NCBI GenBank assembly: GCA_038276395.1
Contig: JBBQAA010000044.1
Location: 187-64,186, forward strand
Length of the DNA stretch: 64,000 nt
Source of the DNA: Solirubrobacterales bacterium
GTDB taxonomy: Bacteria > Actinomycetota > Thermoleophilia > Solirubrobacterales > Solirubrobacteraceae
Direction of reading: 5' to 3'
Shown: positions 32,321 through 38,940 of the stretch, piece after piece
Numbering within the stretch: the stretch's first letter is position 1
How the letters are laid out: each line of letters begins with the position of its first letter
Translations under genes and position numbers: made by a program
The notes under the pieces: model-generated
What the model was told of the DNA's origin: nothing
Seen by the model: the letters and a program-made list of their open reading frames with translations, nothing else
Databases searched by the model: none

Positions 32321-33325
32321 TCAGGCCTCGGCCACCTGCAGCACGAGCTTGCCGGTGTTGGCGCCCTCGAAGAGCTGCAGGAGCGTGGCGGGGAAGGCCT
32401 CGATGCCACCCTCCACGACGTCCTCGCGGGCGACGAGCCGGCCCTCCTGCATCCAGCCGCCGATCTCCTTGGCGGCCTGGCCGTAGCGCTCGGCGAAGTC
32501 GAAGACGACGAAGCCCTCCATGCGGGCGCGGTTGACCAGCAGCGAGAGGTAGTTCGCGGGCCCGGCCGGCGGCTCCTCCGCGTTGTAGATCGAGATCGCG
32601 CCGCAGATCGCCACGCGCGCGCCCTGGCCCAGGCGCGCCAGGGCGGCATCGAGGATCTCGCCGCCCACGTTGTCGAAGTAGACGTCGAGCCGCGGCTGCT
32701 CGCGCAGCGCCGCGCCCACGTCGCCCGCCTTGTAGTCGATCGCGGCGTCGAAGCCGAGCTCGCGCAGCCAGGCGCACTTCTCCTCGCCGCCGGCGATCCC
32801 GATGACCGTGCAGCCCTTGATCTTCGCGATCTGGCCGGCGACGCTCCCCACCGCTCCGGCCGCGCCGGAGATGAGCACGGTGTCGCCCTCCTTCGCCGCG
32901 GCCACGTCGAGCAGGCCGAAGTAGGCGGTCATGCCGGTCATTCCCAGCGCGCCCAGGTACGCGGGCAGGGGCGCGAGATCCGGGTCCACCTTCCGCGCCT
33001 CCTTGCCCGAGACCGTCGCGTACTCCTGCACGCCGAAGATCCCGGTCACGTGGTCGCCCTCGGCGAGCTGCGGATGGCGCGAGGCGACGACGCGGCCGAC
33101 CGAGCCCGCGCGCATCACGTCCCCGATCCCCACCGGCTCGATGTAGGAGCGCCCCTCGTTCATCCACCCGCGCATCGCGGGGTCGAGGGAGAGATAGAGC
33201 GCCTGGACGACGGCCTCCCCCTCGCCCGGGTCGGCGACGGGCTCCTCGGTCTGCTCCCAGTCGGAGTCCTTGGGCAGGCCCTGAGGGCGGGCGGCGAGGC
33301 GGATCTGGTGGTTGGTGGCGTCCAT
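32321..33325 (-). CDS. NADP-dependent oxidoreductase, MDR superfamily (YncB/CurA/PTGR-like)
   Basis: LYLSLDPAMRG...GMTGMTAY.GL...G.TVLISGAAGAVGS.AGQIAK..G. Start at ATG 33325. Confidence 0.85.
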   Translation of the reverse strand: MDATNHQIRLAARPQGLPKDSDWEQTEEPVADPGEGEAVVQALYLSLDPAMRGWMNEGRSYIEPVGIGDVMRAGSVGRVVASRHPQLAEGDHVTGIFGVQEYATVSGKEARKVDPDLAPLPAYLGALGMTGMTAYFGLLDVAAAKEGDTVLISGAAGAVGSVAGQIAKIKGCTVIGIAGGEEKCAWLRELGFDAAIDYKAGDVGAALREQPRLDVYFDNVGGEILDAALARLGQGARVAICGAISIYNAEEPPAGPANYLSLLVNRARMEGFVVFDFAERYGQAAKEIGGWMQEGRLVAREDVVEGGIEAFPATLLQLFEGANTGKLVLQVAEA

Positions 33326-33400: not shown

Positions 33401-33616
33401 ATGGCCGCCAAGGATCTGAGGAGAGGCGACCGCGTCGAGTGGCAGAGCCACGGCTCGACCGCGGTCGGCAGAGTCGAGAAGAAGATCACCTCGGAGACCG
33501 AGGAGGCGGGCCGGAAGGTCAAGGCCTCCGAGACGGAGCCGCAGTACAAGGTGCGCTCGGAGAAGTCCGGCGGCGACGCCGCGCACCGGCCCGCGGCGCT
33601 TGAGCGCAAGCACTGA
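33401..33616 (+). CDS. DUF2945-family (Tudor-like) small protein
   Basis: GDRVEWQSHGSTAVGRVEKKIT....G..VKAS...P.Y.V.S.KSG..A.H. Confidence 0.7.
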   Translation: MAAKDLRRGDRVEWQSHGSTAVGRVEKKITSETEEAGRKVKASETEPQYKVRSEKSGGDAAHRPAALERKH

Positions 33617-33797: not shown

Positions 33798-34952
33798 CTA
33801 GGTCGTCGTACTGGACCGGCGGTCCAGCACGCCCGCGGTGAACTCCCCCGCCAGCTCGCCGGCGAGCAGCCGCAGGTCGTCGAGGGCCTCGGCGCGCTCG
33901 CGCTGGCGCCGGGAGCCCGGGCGTTCGCCGAGCTCGCCCGCGAGCTCGAGCTCGGTCAGGCAGCCGAGCTCCTCGGCGTGCGGGCGCGCCGCCTCGATGA
34001 GCGCCTCGAGCTGCTCGGTGGCGGGCACCCGGCAGCGCCCTTCGGGATCGAGGAACCGGCCCTCCATCCCGTCGCGGGCGGCGATGAAGCGGTTCTCGAC
34101 GAGCGCCTCGGGGGAGGCGAGCAGCGCGTCGGAGACGTAGCCCTCCTCGAGCTCCAGCCGCGCGACCGACTGGATGAGCGCGCACAGCCCCGCGGTGTCG
34201 GCGACCGAGGTCTGGGCGTCCATGATCCGGATCTCGATCGTGCCGAAGCGCGGCTGGGGGCGGACGTCCCACCACAGGAAGGTCGGCTCGAGGAAGGCCT
34301 GGCAGTCGATCAGCAGCCTCACGGCGTCCACCCACCCGGCGTAGGAGGAGAACGGCCGCGGGATCCCCACCCGCGGGAAGGCCTGAAAGAGCGGCGTGCG
34401 GGAGGAGGCGAGGCCCGAGTCCCGGCCCTGCCAGTAGGGGGAGTTGGCCGAGAGGGCGAGCAGGAGCGGCAGGTGCCCGCGTAGGCGGTTGTAGAGGCGA
34501 ATGGCGTCCCCGGCCTCCGCGACCCCGACGTGGACGTGCAGGGCGAAGGTCGGCTCGCGGCGGGCCAGCTCGCGCATGTCGCGGTAGACGAGCTGGTAGC
34601 GGTCCCCCGAGGAGACCCGGGTGTCCTCCCACACCGCGCAGGGATGCGTGCCCGCGGCGGCGGCGAAGAGCCCGTGGGCGTTCAGCGCCTGGGCCAGCCG
34701 CGCCCGCAGGTCGCGCAGATCCCCCGCCACGGCGGCGACGCTACGGCCGGGCCGCGTGGCGAGCTCGAGCGCCGAGCCGTGGGTCTCGGCGGTGAGCGAG
34801 CCCGCGACGAGCTCCGGGACCTGGGCGAAGGCGCGCTCGGCGTCCTGCTCGAGCGACCAGTCCTCGGGGTCGACGACCATGACCTCCTCCTCGATCCCCA
34901 GCGTGTAGGGCTCGGAGGGGACCCACTCCGTCCACGCGCGGGACGGGCTCAC
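33798..34952 (-). CDS. Carboxylate-amine ligase, GCS2/YbdK family
   Basis: TLGIEEEVMVVD...ETHGSALELAT...ALHVHVGV...ANSPYW.G.D.G..S.R. The GTG at 34952 overlaps the upstream TGA. Confidence 0.85.
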   Translation of the reverse strand: MSPSRAWTEWVPSEPYTLGIEEEVMVVDPEDWSLEQDAERAFAQVPELVAGSLTAETHGSALELATRPGRSVAAVAGDLRDLRARLAQALNAHGLFAAAAGTHPCAVWEDTRVSSGDRYQLVYRDMRELARREPTFALHVHVGVAEAGDAIRLYNRLRGHLPLLLALSANSPYWQGRDSGLASSRTPLFQAFPRVGIPRPFSSYAGWVDAVRLLIDCQAFLEPTFLWWDVRPQPRFGTIEIRIMDAQTSVADTAGLCALIQSVARLELEEGYVSDALLASPEALVENRFIAARDGMEGRFLDPEGRCRVPATEQLEALIEAARPHAEELGCLTELELAGELGERPGSRRQRERAEALDDLRLLAGELAGEFTAGVLDRRSSTTT

Positions 34953-36346
34953 GCCAGCACCCAGGTGTCCTTGCCCCCGCCGCGCTGGGAGGAGTTGACG
35001 ACGAGCGCGCCCTCCCCGAGGGCGACCCGGGTGAGGCCCCCGGGCGGGACGCGGACGCCGGCCGGGCCGGCGAACGCGTAGGGCCGGAGGTCGACGTGGC
35101 GGGGCGCGAGGACGCCGCCCGCCACCACCGTCGGGCAGCGGGAGAGCGCGATCGTCGGCTGGGCGACCCAGCGCTCCGGCGCCTTCCGGATGCGCTCCGC
35201 GGCGGCGTCCACGTCCGCCGCCGTGGCGTGGGCGCAGACGACGACCCCGTAGCCGCCGTGCCCCTCGCGCGGCTTGACGACGAGCTCGGGCAGGCGCTCG
35301 AGCGCCTCCTGGAGGCACGCGGGGTCGGTGAGGTCGTAGGTCGAGACCGAGGCGAGGAGCGGCTCCTCCTCCAGGTACAGGCGCACGAGCTCCTCGACGT
35401 GGGCGTGGATCGCCTTGTCGTCGGCCACGCCCGTGCCGTAGCCGTTGACGATCCCGAGGCGCCCCGCGAACCAGGGCTCGAGCACGAGCGCGCCGATCGG
35501 TGTAGGCGTTCCGTCCACGGCGAAGGCGCGGTCCTCGTCGGTGCGCCGGTAGACGACGTCGACGGGCGTTCGCCGGCCATCCTCGCCGCGGAGGAACAGC
35601 TCCTCCCCCCGCCGCTCGAGCTCCGCGACCGTCACCAGGGGGACCCCGAGGGCGCGCGCGGCACGGGTGTGCTCGAAGTAGGCCGAGTTGCCCGGGCCGT
35701 CGGTCAGGACGACCGCGGCGGGCTCCTCCACTCCGAGCGGCGCGGCGGCGCGGATCGCCTCGGCCAAGCCGGCCAGGGAGCCGGCGCCGAAGTCGCGCTC
35801 GGGCAGGGGGAGCTCCTCGGCCAGGGCGCTGCGCGCGGCGGCGGCGTAGGCGTAGCCCGAGGGGGTGCGCACGTTGTCCTCGAGCACGAGGAAGGCCCCG
35901 CCGTCGCCGCGGACGATGTCGAGCCCGGCGACGCCGATCAGCGGCGCGTCGGGCACCCGGCCCCTCAGCCCGGGCTCGTAGCCGGCCGCGGTCTCGATTG
36001 CCGCCTCGGGCACGACGCCCTCGGCCACGCACCGGCGCTCACCGTAGGCGTCGTGGACGAAGGCCTCGAGCGCGTGCACGCGCTGGGCGACCCCGGCGGC
36101 GAGGCCGTCCCACTCCGGGGCGGTCAGGAGCCGCGGCACCGGGTCGACGACGAACGGCGCGCCGGTCTCACGGGAGCCGAAGACGACCCCGCGCTCGGCC
36201 AGCCGGGCGCCGACCCGCGCGTGCACGCGCTCGAGCCCCAGCTCCTCTAGCCGCGCGAGCACCGGCGCGTAGTGGGGACGGGGCTCGCCGGGCGCGGAGA
36301 ACGCCTCGTCGTAGCCGTCGGTGAAGGGGGCGAGGGAGGAGGCCAT
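34949..36346 (-). CDS. Circularly permuted type 2 ATP-grasp protein
   Basis: 465 aa with the characteristic YDE....G..RPHY..........L and LVVKP..G.GG.G....... pattern of the CP_ATPgrasp_2 family. Confidence 0.85.
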   Translation of the reverse strand: MASSLAPFTDGYDEAFSAPGEPRPHYAPVLARLEELGLERVHARVGARLAERGVVFGSRETGAPFVVDPVPRLLTAPEWDGLAAGVAQRVHALEAFVHDAYGERRCVAEGVVPEAAIETAAGYEPGLRGRVPDAPLIGVAGLDIVRGDGGAFLVLEDNVRTPSGYAYAAAARSALAEELPLPERDFGAGSLAGLAEAIRAAAPLGVEEPAAVVLTDGPGNSAYFEHTRAARALGVPLVTVAELERRGEELFLRGEDGRRTPVDVVYRRTDEDRAFAVDGTPTPIGALVLEPWFAGRLGIVNGYGTGVADDKAIHAHVEELVRLYLEEEPLLASVSTYDLTDPACLQEALERLPELVVKPREGHGGYGVVVCAHATAADVDAAAERIRKAPERWVAQPTIALSRCPTVVAGGVLAPRHVDLRPYAFAGPAGVRVPPGGLTRVALGEGALVVNSSQRGGGKDTWVLA

Positions 36347-36414
36347 GCGCGCAGCCGAACCTCAGAAGCCTTCCCCGTTGGCGCGTTCGGCACCCCTCGC
36401 CGGCGCGCGAGCGC

Positions 36415-37233
36415 TCAGCTCGCGAGCAGATCCGCGGAGCGTGGCCCGGGGCTCGCCGCCCGCTCCCGCGCGGCGGCGACGAACGCCTGGAAGAGCCCGA
36501 GCTGATCCGAGCGCTCGGAGGCCAGCGACTCCGCGTGCCACTGCACCCCGACGACGAAGCGCCCGTCGCCGTCCTCGAGCCCCTCGATCGTCCCGTCCGG
36601 CGCCCACGCCACCGGGCGCAGCCCCGCGCCGAGCCGGGCGGTGGCCTGGTGGTGGTAGGAGTTCACGCGGACCTCGGAGTCGCCGAGCATCCCCGCCAGC
36701 CGGCTCTCGGGATCGAGCGTGACGTCGTGGCACGCCGTCACCCCCTTCTCGGCACTGCGGTGCTCGACGGCCTCGCCGACGAGCTCGGGGAGGTGCTGGT
36801 GCAGCGTGCCGCCGCGCGCGACATTGAGGATCTGCAGCCCGCGGCAGATCGCCAGGACGGGAATCCCGGCGTGGTCCGCGCCGCGCACGAGCGCGAGCTC
36901 GAACTGGTCGAGGCCGGGGAAGGTCGGGCCGAGCTCGGCGTGGGGATCGGCGCCGTAGCAAGCGGGGTCGAGATCCGGGCCGCCCGAGAGGCAGACGCCG
37001 TCGACCCGCGCGAGGATCGAGGCCAGGGCGACCGCGCCGAGCGGCGGCACGACGACCGGGGTCCCCCCGGCGTCCTGCACGGCCTGCAGGTAGCGCAGCC
37101 CGAGCACCATCTCCCGCCGCGGCGGCTCGCCCCGGGCGATCGCCTGCGCGGGTGTGACATCGCGGATCTCCGAGGTGGAGACGGCGATGAGGGGCGCGCT
37201 GCGGTCGGACGGGACTTCGGCCACAAAGGACAT
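36415..37233 (-). CDS. Class I glutamine amidotransferase / peptidase C26 (gamma-glutamyl hydrolase, PuuD-like)
   Basis: Nucleophile elbow LAICRGLQILNVARGGTL and the VNSYHHQA His motif. Confidence 0.85.
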   Translation of the reverse strand: MSFVAEVPSDRSAPLIAVSTSEIRDVTPAQAIARGEPPRREMVLGLRYLQAVQDAGGTPVVVPPLGAVALASILARVDGVCLSGGPDLDPACYGADPHAELGPTFPGLDQFELALVRGADHAGIPVLAICRGLQILNVARGGTLHQHLPELVGEAVEHRSAEKGVTACHDVTLDPESRLAGMLGDSEVRVNSYHHQATARLGAGLRPVAWAPDGTIEGLEDGDGRFVVGVQWHAESLASERSDQLGLFQAFVAAARERAASPGPRSADLLAS

Positions 37234-37236
37234 TCT

Positions 37237-37458
37237 CTACCCCGCGGCGGCGGCATCCACGGTTCCGGTGAGTCGAAGGCCCGCACCGGCCTGCTCGGCG
37301 ACGAGGAGCTGGCGCGCGACGATCTCCGCGGCGGCGGGTGTCGGGGCGAGCACGCGGTAGGTCCCGCTCTGTGTCGCGGACGCGGCGGGGGCGGTGGGGG
37401 CGGCGCCGACAAAGGAGCCGGTGGCCTGGACGCGGAGGTAGGTCATGACCGGGAGCAT
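37237..37458 (-). CDS. Small Ala-rich protein (69-73 aa) ending ...VDAAAAG, first gene of the amidoligase operon
   Basis: The ORF shows high third-position GC when read codon by codon. Its stop is 3 nt before the amidotransferase ATG. I recognise no family. Confidence 0.4.
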   Translation of the reverse strand: MLPVMTYLRVQATGSFVGAAPTAPAASATQSGTYRVLAPTPAAAEIVARQLLVAEQAGAGLRLTGTVDAAAAG

Positions 37459-37667
37459 TCCCGCCGGCCGGGTCAGGCCGGTTGTCCCGGGGGCCCATAT
37501 TCGGAAGCCCCCGCCCCGCCCGCCGGTCGAGGTCCGCCGGGGAGGGCACGGCTGCGCTCAGCGCTCACCCGCCGTCCCGGTCGTCGCCCGGCCAGGAGGA
37601 AGGAGATCCCGCCCCGCCCACGCTGAAACTGGGCCGGACGGCGGGGAACCGGGCCGGATGGGGATCG

Positions 37668-37815: not shown

Positions 37816-38940
37816 TCAGAAGACGACGACCTGTCGCACCGCCTGCGCCTCGCGCAGGCGGTCGAAGCCCTCGTTCAGGTCTTCCAGGGCGAGCCGGTGG
37901 GTGAGCAGGGCCTCGACCGGCAGCCGCCCCTCGGCGTGCAGCGCCACGAAGCGCGGCAGGTCTACCGAGGGCACGCAGGAACCGAGGTAGGAGCCGCGGA
38001 GCGTCCGCTCCTCGGCCACGAGCGAGACGGCGGGGATCGAGAGCATCCGCTCGGGGTGCGGCAACCCGACGGTGACCGTCGTGCCGCCGCGGCACGTGGC
38101 GGCGTAGGCCTCGGCCAGGACCTTCTCGCTGCCGACCGTCTCGATCGCCTTCTCCGCCCCGCCGCCCGTCAGCTCGCGGATCCGCGCGACAGCCTCCGGC
38201 CCGGCGGGCACGGCGTGGGTGGCGCCGAGCGTCCGGGCGAGCGCCAGCTTCTCCGGGACGACGTCGACGGCCACGAGCGGGTCGGCGCCCGCGAGCCGCG
38301 CGCCGATCACGGCGGCCAGGCCGACGCCGCCGAGCCCGAACACCGCCACCGACTCCCCGAGCTCGACGTGCGCGGAGTGCAGCGCGGCGCCGACGCCGGT
38401 GAGGACGGCGCAGCCGAACAGGGCGGCGAGCTCCCACGGCAGCTCGGGCGGCACCTTGACCGCCGAGCGAGCGGAGACGACGACGGCCTCGGCGAAGGCG
38501 GAGACGCCCAGGTGGTGGTGCAGCTCGGGATCCCCTTCCGATCCCCAGCGGCGCTCGCCGGAGAGCAGCGTCCCGGCCGCGTTGGCCGCCGCGCCGGGCT
38601 CGCACAGCGCCGGGCGCCCGCGGCGGCACGGCTCGCATTCGCCGCAGGCGGGCACGAACGCGAGGACGATGTGGTCCCCGGGGGCGAAGCCGCTGACGCC
38701 CTCCCCCACCTCGTCGACCTCCCCGGCCGCCTCGTGGCCGAGCACCATGGGCATGACCCGCGGGCGCGAGCCGTCGATGACCGAGAGGTCGGAGTGGCAG
38801 AGCCCCGCGGCGCGCACGCGAACGAGCAGCTCGCCCGGGCCGGGCGGGGCCAGCTCGAGCTCCTCGACCTGCAGCGGGCGCGACTCCGCGTAGGGGGCGG
38901 GCAGCCCCATCTCACGCAGGACCGCGCCGCGGACCCTCAC
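37816..38940 (-). CDS. Zinc-dependent alcohol dehydrogenase (MDR family)
   Basis: GLCHSD....G......P.VLGHEAAGEV, the structural zinc motif CGECEPCRRGRPALC, and GLGGVGL. GTGA overlap with the thioesterase stop. Confidence 0.85.
   Translation of the reverse strand: MRVRGAVLREMGLPAPYAESRPLQVEELELAPPGPGELLVRVRAAGLCHSDLSVIDGSRPRVMPMVLGHEAAGEVDEVGEGVSGFAPGDHIVLAFVPACGECEPCRRGRPALCEPGAAANAAGTLLSGERRWGSEGDPELHHHLGVSAFAEAVVVSARSAVKVPPELPWELAALFGCAVLTGVGAALHSAHVELGESVAVFGLGGVGLAAVIGARLAGADPLVAVDVVPEKLALARTLGATHAVPAGPEAVARIRELTGGGAEKAIETVGSEKVLAEAYAATCRGGTTVTVGLPHPERMLSIPAVSLVAEERTLRGSYLGSCVPSVDLPRFVALHAEGRLPVEALLTHRLALEDLNEGFDRLREAQAVRQVVVF

Follow-up and report, generated by a model that had tools for sequence, protein, structure and literature searches.

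Among the described systems with which the genes treated here can be compared, the pathway to the osmolyte N-acetylglutaminylglutamine amide (NAGGN) comes first: Ngg acetylates one glutamine and ligates a second one to it, AsnO then amidates the dipeptide, and the operons include a peptidase which is presumed to keep the pool in balance (PMC8070244, PMC5563000). The trio consisting of AsnO (TIGR03104), the GNAT/ligase Ngg and an M42-type peptidase is represented by PA3459-PA3461 of P. aeruginosa, and by asnO-ngg of S. meliloti. A second point of reference is the operon in which a circularly permuted (CP) ATP-grasp ligase is accompanied by alpha-E, a transglutaminase-like protein and, in some cases, Anbu, for which no role has been experimentally confirmed (PMC6376114). 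A third is the gamma-glutamyl-polyamine (Puu/Spu) pathway with its ligase PuuA and its C26 hydrolase PuuD/SpuA. Here we describe a four-gene operon of a soil actinobacterium of the Solirubrobacterales (assembly GCA_038276395.1, contig JBBQAA010000044.1, positions 187 to 64,186; this entire 64,000-nucleotide stretch is referred to as the window), in which the gene of a 69-residue orphan protein is followed by those of a peptidase C26-type hydrolase, a CP type 2 ATP-grasp ligase and a GCS2/YbdK-family carboxylate-amine ligase. We propose, with a probability of about 0.5, that the operon serves the ATP-dependent synthesis and the hydrolytic turnover of a small soluble peptide or amide of the glutamate/glutamine type, and that it represents a non-canonical relative of the NAGGN system.

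A CP ATP-grasp clade devoid of alpha-E

The enzyme identities that an earlier note on this DNA had read from the letters alone were confirmed by hidden Markov model (HMM) searches. The ATP-grasp protein covers PF14403 over its full length (profile positions 1-374 of 374; E 1.9e-100, 336.9 bits), and among solved structures 3N6X is the closest to it (E 4e-92). The GCS2 protein matches PF04107 (E 2.4e-52, 178.5 bits), exceeds the cutoff of TIGR02050 for the YbdK family (247.6 bits, cutoff 176.4), and aligns to YbdK (1R8G; E 1e-51). The C26 protein matches PF07722 (E 8.9e-60; 202.6 bits, gathering cutoff 20.5), with 3FIJ (aligned over 214 residues), 7D4R and PuuD (6VTV) being its nearest solved structures. 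The earlier note had considered the catalytic residues of this protein intact on account of a Cys in LAICRG and a His in SYHHQ: both motifs are present (Cys130 and His194-195), but the second part of this assignment requires revision. Class I amidotransferases follow an H-x-E rule for the catalytic His and, because QWHAE (His233/Glu235) fits this rule, His233 is more probably the catalytic His of C26 than is a His of SYHHQ.

What distinguishes the ATP-grasp protein is the set of genes found beside it. Its relatives at 49-71% identity all come from Solirubrobacteraceae, Conexibacter or Thermoleophilaceae-type sources, and alpha-E (PF04168) is encoded in 0 of the 16 loci of this clade (window included), whereas it is present in 148 of 152 loci of ATP-grasp relatives of ∼40% identity, as judged by tblastn with four alpha-E proteins, for one of which the identity was confirmed by Pfam. 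The absence of alpha-E and transglutaminase partners noticed earlier is thus borne out: no alpha-E homolog is encoded anywhere in the 64-kb window, and the Pfam scan, which comprised the four genes of the operon and the gene on either side, yielded neither a transglutaminase nor an Anbu domain. Hence, while the ligase is homologous to that of the CP ATP-grasp/alpha-E operon (PF14403/PF04174), its partners are instead C26, GCS2 and, in some loci, AsnO. Full-text literature searches on the CP ATP-grasp family retrieved no functional study of the alpha-E-less clade.

C26 and/or GCS2 adjoin the ATP-grasp gene in 10 of the clade's 14 independent loci, with several gene orders (Table 1), and since this linkage persists through the rearranged orders, a shared function of C26, ATP-grasp and GCS2 is indicated. 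In the window, the four genes lie in one orientation at the coordinates given in the earlier note. The stop codon of C26 is separated by 68 nucleotides (nt) from the start of the ATP-grasp gene, the TGA of which is overlapped by 4 nt (GTGA) by the GTG start of GCS2.

Table 1. Positions of the operon genes, their leader and their neighbours in the window, and order of the cluster genes in related loci.
Feature	Position	Strand	Remarks
Small protein gene	37237..37446	(-)	69 aa, MTYLRVQATGSF...LRLTGTVDAAAAG; founder of orphan family
Peptidase C26 / class I glutamine-amidotransferase-type hydrolase, gamma-glutamyl hydrolase type	36415..37233	(-)	272 aa; PF07722
CP type 2 ATP-grasp ligase	34949..36346	(-)	465 aa; PF14403
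GCS2/YbdK-family carboxylate-amine ligase	33798..34952	(-)	384 aa; PF04107; last operon gene
Conserved block, 5' leader of small gene	37478..37535 (approx.)	(-)	motif recurrence in relatives
Hva1_TUDOR gene	33401-33616	(+)	71 aa; PF11160
NADPH-dependent oxidoreductase	32321-33325	(-)	
Zinc alcohol dehydrogenase	37816-38937	(-)	
L084			C26 - ATP-grasp - GCS2
L085, L088			ATP-grasp - C26 - GCS2
L086, L087			ATP-grasp - C26
L089			ATP-grasp - GCS2
L082 (Conexibacter sp. JD483)			C26 - AsnB-like - ATP-grasp - thiamine pyrophosphate (TPP) enzyme - cyclase
L167 (Conexibacter sp. CPCC 206217)			C26 - AsnB-like - ATP-grasp - GCS2 - TPP enzyme - cyclase
L001, L081, L083, L168			ATP-grasp alone

AsnO in related clusters and the proposed glutamate/glutamine chemistry

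In four relatives (L082, L164, L167 and L174) an AsnB-like gene is located within the cluster. On TIGR03104, the equivalog model of N-acetylglutaminylglutamine amidotransferase (AsnO; cutoff 570), these genes score 941-952 bits, with 669 bits for a truncated copy, which far exceeds the scores of the same genes on the generic asparagine synthase model, and the Cys2 nucleophile is retained in all four copies. In the tree of the C26 proteins, the window and L084 are placed amid L164, L174, L082 and L167. Because the AsnO-bearing clusters are arranged in this manner, the parsimonious reading of the tree is that AsnO was lost in the lineage of the window.

When compared with the NAGGN trio, the clusters exhibit the same overall design, that is, one or two ATP-dependent ligases, an amidotransferase (in the four relatives) and a hydrolase in a single operon. 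They differ in that (i) the CP ATP-grasp and GCS2 ligases stand in place of Ngg, (ii) the hydrolase is a C26 cysteine hydrolase and not an M42 metallopeptidase, and (iii) the cluster of the window is devoid of AsnO and comprises an orphan small protein in addition. We favour glutamate/glutamine chemistry because of the AsnO equivalog in the clusters of relatives, the PuuD-like C26 and the YbdK-type GCS2. In the sequence of reactions which we infer, GCS2 would make one amide bond and the CP ATP-grasp ligase devoid of alpha-E another, in both cases on a small Glu/Gln-type substrate and via an acyl-phosphate intermediate. AsnO would amidate the product where it is part of the cluster, its counterpart in the window's genome having been lost or being encoded elsewhere, and C26 would remove a gamma-glutamyl or amide group, which would serve either the recycling of the compound or the balance of its pool. 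The 69-residue protein would be a sub-lineage-specific addition, subject to translational coupling with C26, and its most likely role is to assist, stabilise or regulate this enzyme rather than to be a substrate of the ligases. Synthesis and recycling of a small gamma-glutamyl amide or peptide had been the second choice of the earlier note, and is the option favoured by the evidence now collected.

Several observations weigh against this proposal. First, the link to NAGGN rests on relatives, since no AsnO homolog is encoded in the 64 kb of the window, and the cluster contains no GNAT/Ngg homolog. Second, the ATP-grasp protein matches no NCBIfam model, and its clade comprises no member with a demonstrated substrate. 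Third, C26 and GCS2 fall below all equivalog cutoffs, so that no equivalog model assigns a specificity to either. Finally, the small gene, the product of which is a putative accessory subunit, persists in one lineage that has lost C26.

The matches of the three enzymes also bear on a reading in which the operon serves either the gamma-glutamylation of amines, as in Puu/Spu-like polyamine catabolism or detoxification, or the synthesis of a low-molecular-weight thiol based on gamma-Glu-Cys. GCS2 would then make a gamma-glutamyl amide, the ATP-grasp protein would act in the manner of a glutathione or glutathionylspermidine synthetase, and C26 would remove the gamma-glutamyl group; taken jointly, we consider these roles possible, yet unlikely. 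The pairing of a carboxylate-amine ligase with a C26 gamma-glutamyl hydrolase is indeed shared with the Puu/Spu pathway, and PuuD (6VTV) and the 7D4R-type amidotransferase are among the solved structures closest to C26. The ligase of the window is, however, of the GCS2 type and not of the glutamine-synthetase type, and C26 attains just 110.6 bits on the PuuD equivalog (NF008471), the cutoff of which is 266. Furthermore, neither a PuuA-type, glutamine-synthetase-like ligase nor an amine oxidase or aldehyde dehydrogenase is conserved beside the cluster, and the Puu/Spu pathway's oxidase and aldehyde dehydrogenase partners are missing here. Synthesis of a thiol or of glutathionylspermidine is suggested by the closest structure of the ATP-grasp protein, 3N6X, which was deposited as 'putative glutathionylspermidine synthase', and by the match of GCS2 to the glutamate-cysteine ligase model NF010043. 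The former name is a structural-genomics label with no assay behind it, and the latter score, although the best one among the glutamate-cysteine ligase equivalogs (302.9 bits), does not reach the cutoff of 409. One of the ATP-grasp genes of the clade that stand alone is situated beside genes for a class III aminotransferase and a spermine-synthase-like protein (L081:4566-9837), which would agree with amine chemistry, but the recurrent partner of the clade is the AsnO equivalog, which points to the amide chemistry of glutamine peptides.

The small protein, its family and its partner

The head of the operon is laid out as previously described, with a small open reading frame (ORF) of 69-73 codons terminating in VDAAAAG 3 nt before the next ATG. 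The ORF comprises 73 codons when read from the ATG at 37458 (37237-37458), and 69 codons from the ATG at 37446. Its final GGG codon is followed by the stop codon TAG (37237-37239), by AGA and, in the same frame, by the ATG of C26 at 37233. At a base composition of ∼74% GC, for the window as for the genome, spurious long ORFs are numerous, the small protein belongs to no database family, and some ATP-grasp genes of the clade stand alone (L001, L081, L083, L168), so that one might suspect a chance ORF, or four genes that became neighbours by accident. This suspicion is largely refuted, and we attribute hardly any probability to it: the small ORF is a genuine gene. Its codons exhibit a GC content of 0.89 at the third (GC3) and of 0.62 at the second position, and the gene was also called, as one for a 69-residue protein, in an independent assembly. 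A word-indexed search retrieved three homologs (96%, 80% and 80% identity), each encoded directly upstream of a C26 gene. In the DNA alignment of these relatives only the second ATG (MTYL..., the start of the 69-residue protein) is conserved, and the intergenic DNA further upstream has diverged except for short blocks. Substitutions are concentrated at third codon positions (in one pairwise comparison, for example, 9/5/22 at positions 1/2/3), one length difference among the small genes amounts to a whole codon, i.e., an in-frame indel, and the ratio of nonsynonymous to synonymous substitution rates (dN/dS) of 0.17-0.33 is similar to that of the adjacent C26 gene, with a dN that does not exceed that of C26. 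The family comprises 17 homologous protein clusters with a confident structural model, which likewise speaks against a chance ORF, and accidental adjacency is contradicted by the linkage of the enzymes through several gene orders and by junctions which overlap or are 3 nt apart.

Profile searches, first of 1.84 billion representative proteins and subsequently of a set of 5.8 billion, enlarged the family. The resulting 17 clusters have lengths of 67-109 residues (homologs P0121-P0141), and one of them is annotated as originating from a metagenome-assembled genome of Solirubrobacteraceae. No Pfam, NCBIfam or PADLOC family matches the small protein, and tblastn against 162 related loci yielded no match, family members having come from protein databases only. 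Judged by these searches, the small proteins constitute an orphan family that is restricted to Solirubrobacterales-type genomes. Since the small gene and C26 share one frame, and are set apart by only TAG and 0-3 nt, in five of six loci (window, L164, L165, L166, L169 and L174), readthrough of the stop codon would yield a fusion protein; this was considered, but the 1-nt spacing in L174 breaks the frame. That the small ORF encodes an N-terminal piece of C26 was likewise rejected: homologs of C26 align from their own N-termini without the small protein, and no fused or multidomain homolog of the latter was found among the 1.84 billion representative proteins.

The three enzymes are not always preceded by a small ORF. 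Where C26 is present in loci with the small gene, the latter is located 0-3 nt upstream of C26, irrespective of whether C26 is followed by the ATP-grasp gene (window) or by the AsnB-like gene (L164, L174), and the C26 proteins with a small partner form one clade in the neighbour-joining tree. Conexibacter and other relatives, at least seven of which carry the enzyme cluster in varying gene order, lack a recognisable small gene, which was found in none of the relatives' loci of Table 1 (L001, L081-L089, L167, L168) by tblastn or by the family HMM applied to six-frame translations, and L082, L086 and L167 leave no space for it. The best match of this HMM outside the family is an ORF located 138 nt upstream of C26 in L084 (L084:4751-4999 (+); E 0.48 when all 22,661 fragments are counted, and 3e-5 when it is the sole target). 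This ORF does not share the conserved start, ends in ...LADGQ, and may be a degenerate copy of the small gene. Conversely, L170-L173 possess the small gene without C26 or the ligases, between a divergent arylsulfotransferase gene and a convergent lyase gene, and in L175 no C26 start occurs within the 93 nt that separate the small gene from the contig end. The small gene is therefore not an obligatory part of the enzyme cluster. Because of the 0-3 nt linkage, whatever gene comes next, and because of the single C26 clade in the tree, C26 is, as far as gene arrangement can tell, the partner of the small protein, and the small gene appears to have joined the cluster a single time, in the branch with C26 in first place. 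A divergent arylsulfotransferase (ASST) gene is found directly upstream of the small gene in more distant members of the family (L169, L170-L172, L174).

These results bear on what had been the leading idea of the earlier note, namely that the small protein, through a free C-terminal Gly, is a tag comparable to Pup or ubiquitin. In broader terms, the operon would encode a tagging or carrier system akin to Pup, ubiquitin-like modifiers, LysW or a scaffold peptide. In favour of such a system, the small gene is genuine, subject to purifying selection, and closely coupled to the gene of the first enzyme. As in pupylation (Pup, PafA, Dop), a small protein is encoded beside ligase and hydrolase genes, and GCS2 and PafA/Dop belong to one superfamily of carboxylate-amine ligases (PMC7947786). 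We nonetheless regard the idea as improbable, starting with the fact that the cluster and the small gene occur apart from each other: the former without the latter in L082, L085, L086, L088 and L167 (no room, or no HMM match), the latter without C26 or the ligases in L170-L173. The earlier note had itself named a lack of conservation of the small ORF among relatives with the three enzymes as evidence that would speak against tagging, and this is what is found for the more distant ones. Moreover, GCS2 matches the PF04107 and YbdK models only; it has no match to the Pup-ligase (PafA/Dop) family, PF04107 being its only hit in the Pfam scan (E <= 0.01), and a ThiF/MoeB-type (E1-like) domain is absent from the operon genes in the same scan.

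The C-terminus itself provides evidence on both sides. The family combines a conserved core (MTYLVxVxGxF - loop - YRvxAL.PxAAxxAAxQLLxAE.A.AGLRPAGP) with a variable tail, which speaks for a tag or carrier. Instead of the conserved terminus that had been anticipated, however, Gly is the last residue in 9 of 18 family members (one of them ending in GG), while A, P, V, S or L takes this place in the other nine, and even the near-identical pairs P0128/P0134 and P0135/P0137 differ exactly in the tail. Tagging would be in better accord with the terminal Gly in 6/6 small genes which precede C26 (window 37237-37245 (-), L164, L165, L166, L169, L174). The codon used there is always GGG, which accounts for 35% of the Gly codons in the genes of the window, and falls inside the purine-rich ribosome-binding stretch that immediately precedes the C26 start. 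A constraint at the nucleotide level could therefore explain part of this conservation.

Structure prediction argues in the same direction. The AlphaFold2 model obtained from an 18-sequence alignment is confident, with a predicted local distance difference test (pLDDT) of 92 and a predicted template modelling score (pTM) of 0.78; a previous model from four sequences had a pLDDT of 66 only and afforded no usable result in the fold search. The predicted fold is a compact beta-beta-alpha-beta arrangement comprising beta(2-14), beta(24-34), alpha(37-54) and beta(57-68), and the C-terminus is modelled within the last strand (pLDDT 90 over the last ten-residue block) and not as a free tail. Foldseek with this model retrieved no match in the PDB at E <= 0.001 (best E 0.48); there was no beta-grasp match, and ubiquitin, ThiS and MoaD entries are absent among the matches listed. 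Hence, the small protein differs from ubiquitin, ThiS and MoaD in that its predicted fold is not a beta-grasp, and in having neither a strict C-terminal Gly-Gly nor an E1-like enzyme encoded next to it. It differs from Pup in being predicted to be folded, in ending with Ala-Gly rather than Gly-Gly-Gln/Glu, and in being dispensable for a cluster whose ligase is YbdK-like and not Pup-ligase-like. PurS-PurQ offers a purely conceptual analogy, with a protein of ∼70-85 residues being encoded beside an enzyme of the class I glutamine-amidotransferase fold: the PurS structure 2ZW2 is among the weak, non-significant fold matches (E 5.8, probability 0.25), and there is no sequence similarity.

A more specific version, which we consider a long shot, views the 69-residue protein as a scaffold or carrier of ribosomal origin: amino acids would be added to its C-terminal carboxylate by the CP ATP-grasp and/or GCS2 ligases, AsnO would amidate the product in the relatives, and C26 would release it. 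In favour of a carrier, modification of ribosomal peptides at their C-terminal carboxylate is known from asparagine-synthetase-like enzymes (PMC13060819). If true, this would be an ATP-grasp counterpart of LysW- or PEARL-type biosynthesis on carrier peptides, and a circularly permuted ATP-grasp would have a substrate assigned to it for the first time. Returning to the synthesis and turnover of a soluble glutamate/glutamine-type compound as the preferred explanation, we conclude that the small protein represents a new, confidently folded orphan family which is coupled to the C26 hydrolase.

Surroundings of the operon and significance of the clade

Upstream of the small gene, the leader motifs CCT(C/G)GAC ... 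AT(A/C/T)(C/T)T(C/G/T)GG recur in 8/8 loci carrying this gene (window, L164-L166, L169, L170, L174, L175), and are retained amid diverged intergenic DNA, even where C26 is absent. The region has neither a match to the sigma-70 consensus nor to an RNA family in Rfam, and the conserved block may be a promoter or operator. At the opposite end, the convergently oriented Hva1_TUDOR gene marks the operon boundary and fills the gap ahead of the NADPH-dependent oxidoreductase gene. A single terminator-like match was found outside the operon, at chance level, and 0/4 operon proteins match PADLOC models of anti-phage defence. The upstream neighbour of the operon, a zinc alcohol dehydrogenase gene, has as its best NCBIfam models, both below cutoff, NDMA-dependent alcohol dehydrogenase and S-(hydroxymethyl)mycothiol dehydrogenase; the same neighbour occurs in L163 and L165, which is probably no more than local synteny. 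In the two Conexibacter genomes, genes for a TPP-dependent enzyme (best models, below cutoff, sulfoacetaldehyde acetyltransferase and acetolactate synthase) and a PF04199 cyclase (L167:9718-12280, L082:7451-10081) come after the cluster, and may share its pathway. Another of the lone ATP-grasp genes of the clade (L168:5928-6917 (-)) has two divergent GNAT acetyltransferase genes nearby.

The individual enzyme families, as well as the design of ligase, amidotransferase and hydrolase, were known already. What is new is a clade of CP ATP-grasp ligases that lacks alpha-E and is partnered with C26, GCS2 and AsnO, along with the apparent replacement of Ngg by non-orthologous ligases. CP ATP-grasp ligases are widespread, and it is of importance for this family that the clade described here exchanges the usual alpha-E partner for enzymes of better-understood chemistry: a gamma-glutamyl-type hydrolase, a YbdK-type ligase and, in relatives, the amidotransferase of the NAGGN pathway point to concrete, testable substrates, that is, to peptides and amides of glutamate and glutamine. 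For the biology of the Solirubrobacterales, our findings suggest that these bacteria make a NAGGN-like compound by means of ligases which are not orthologous to Ngg.

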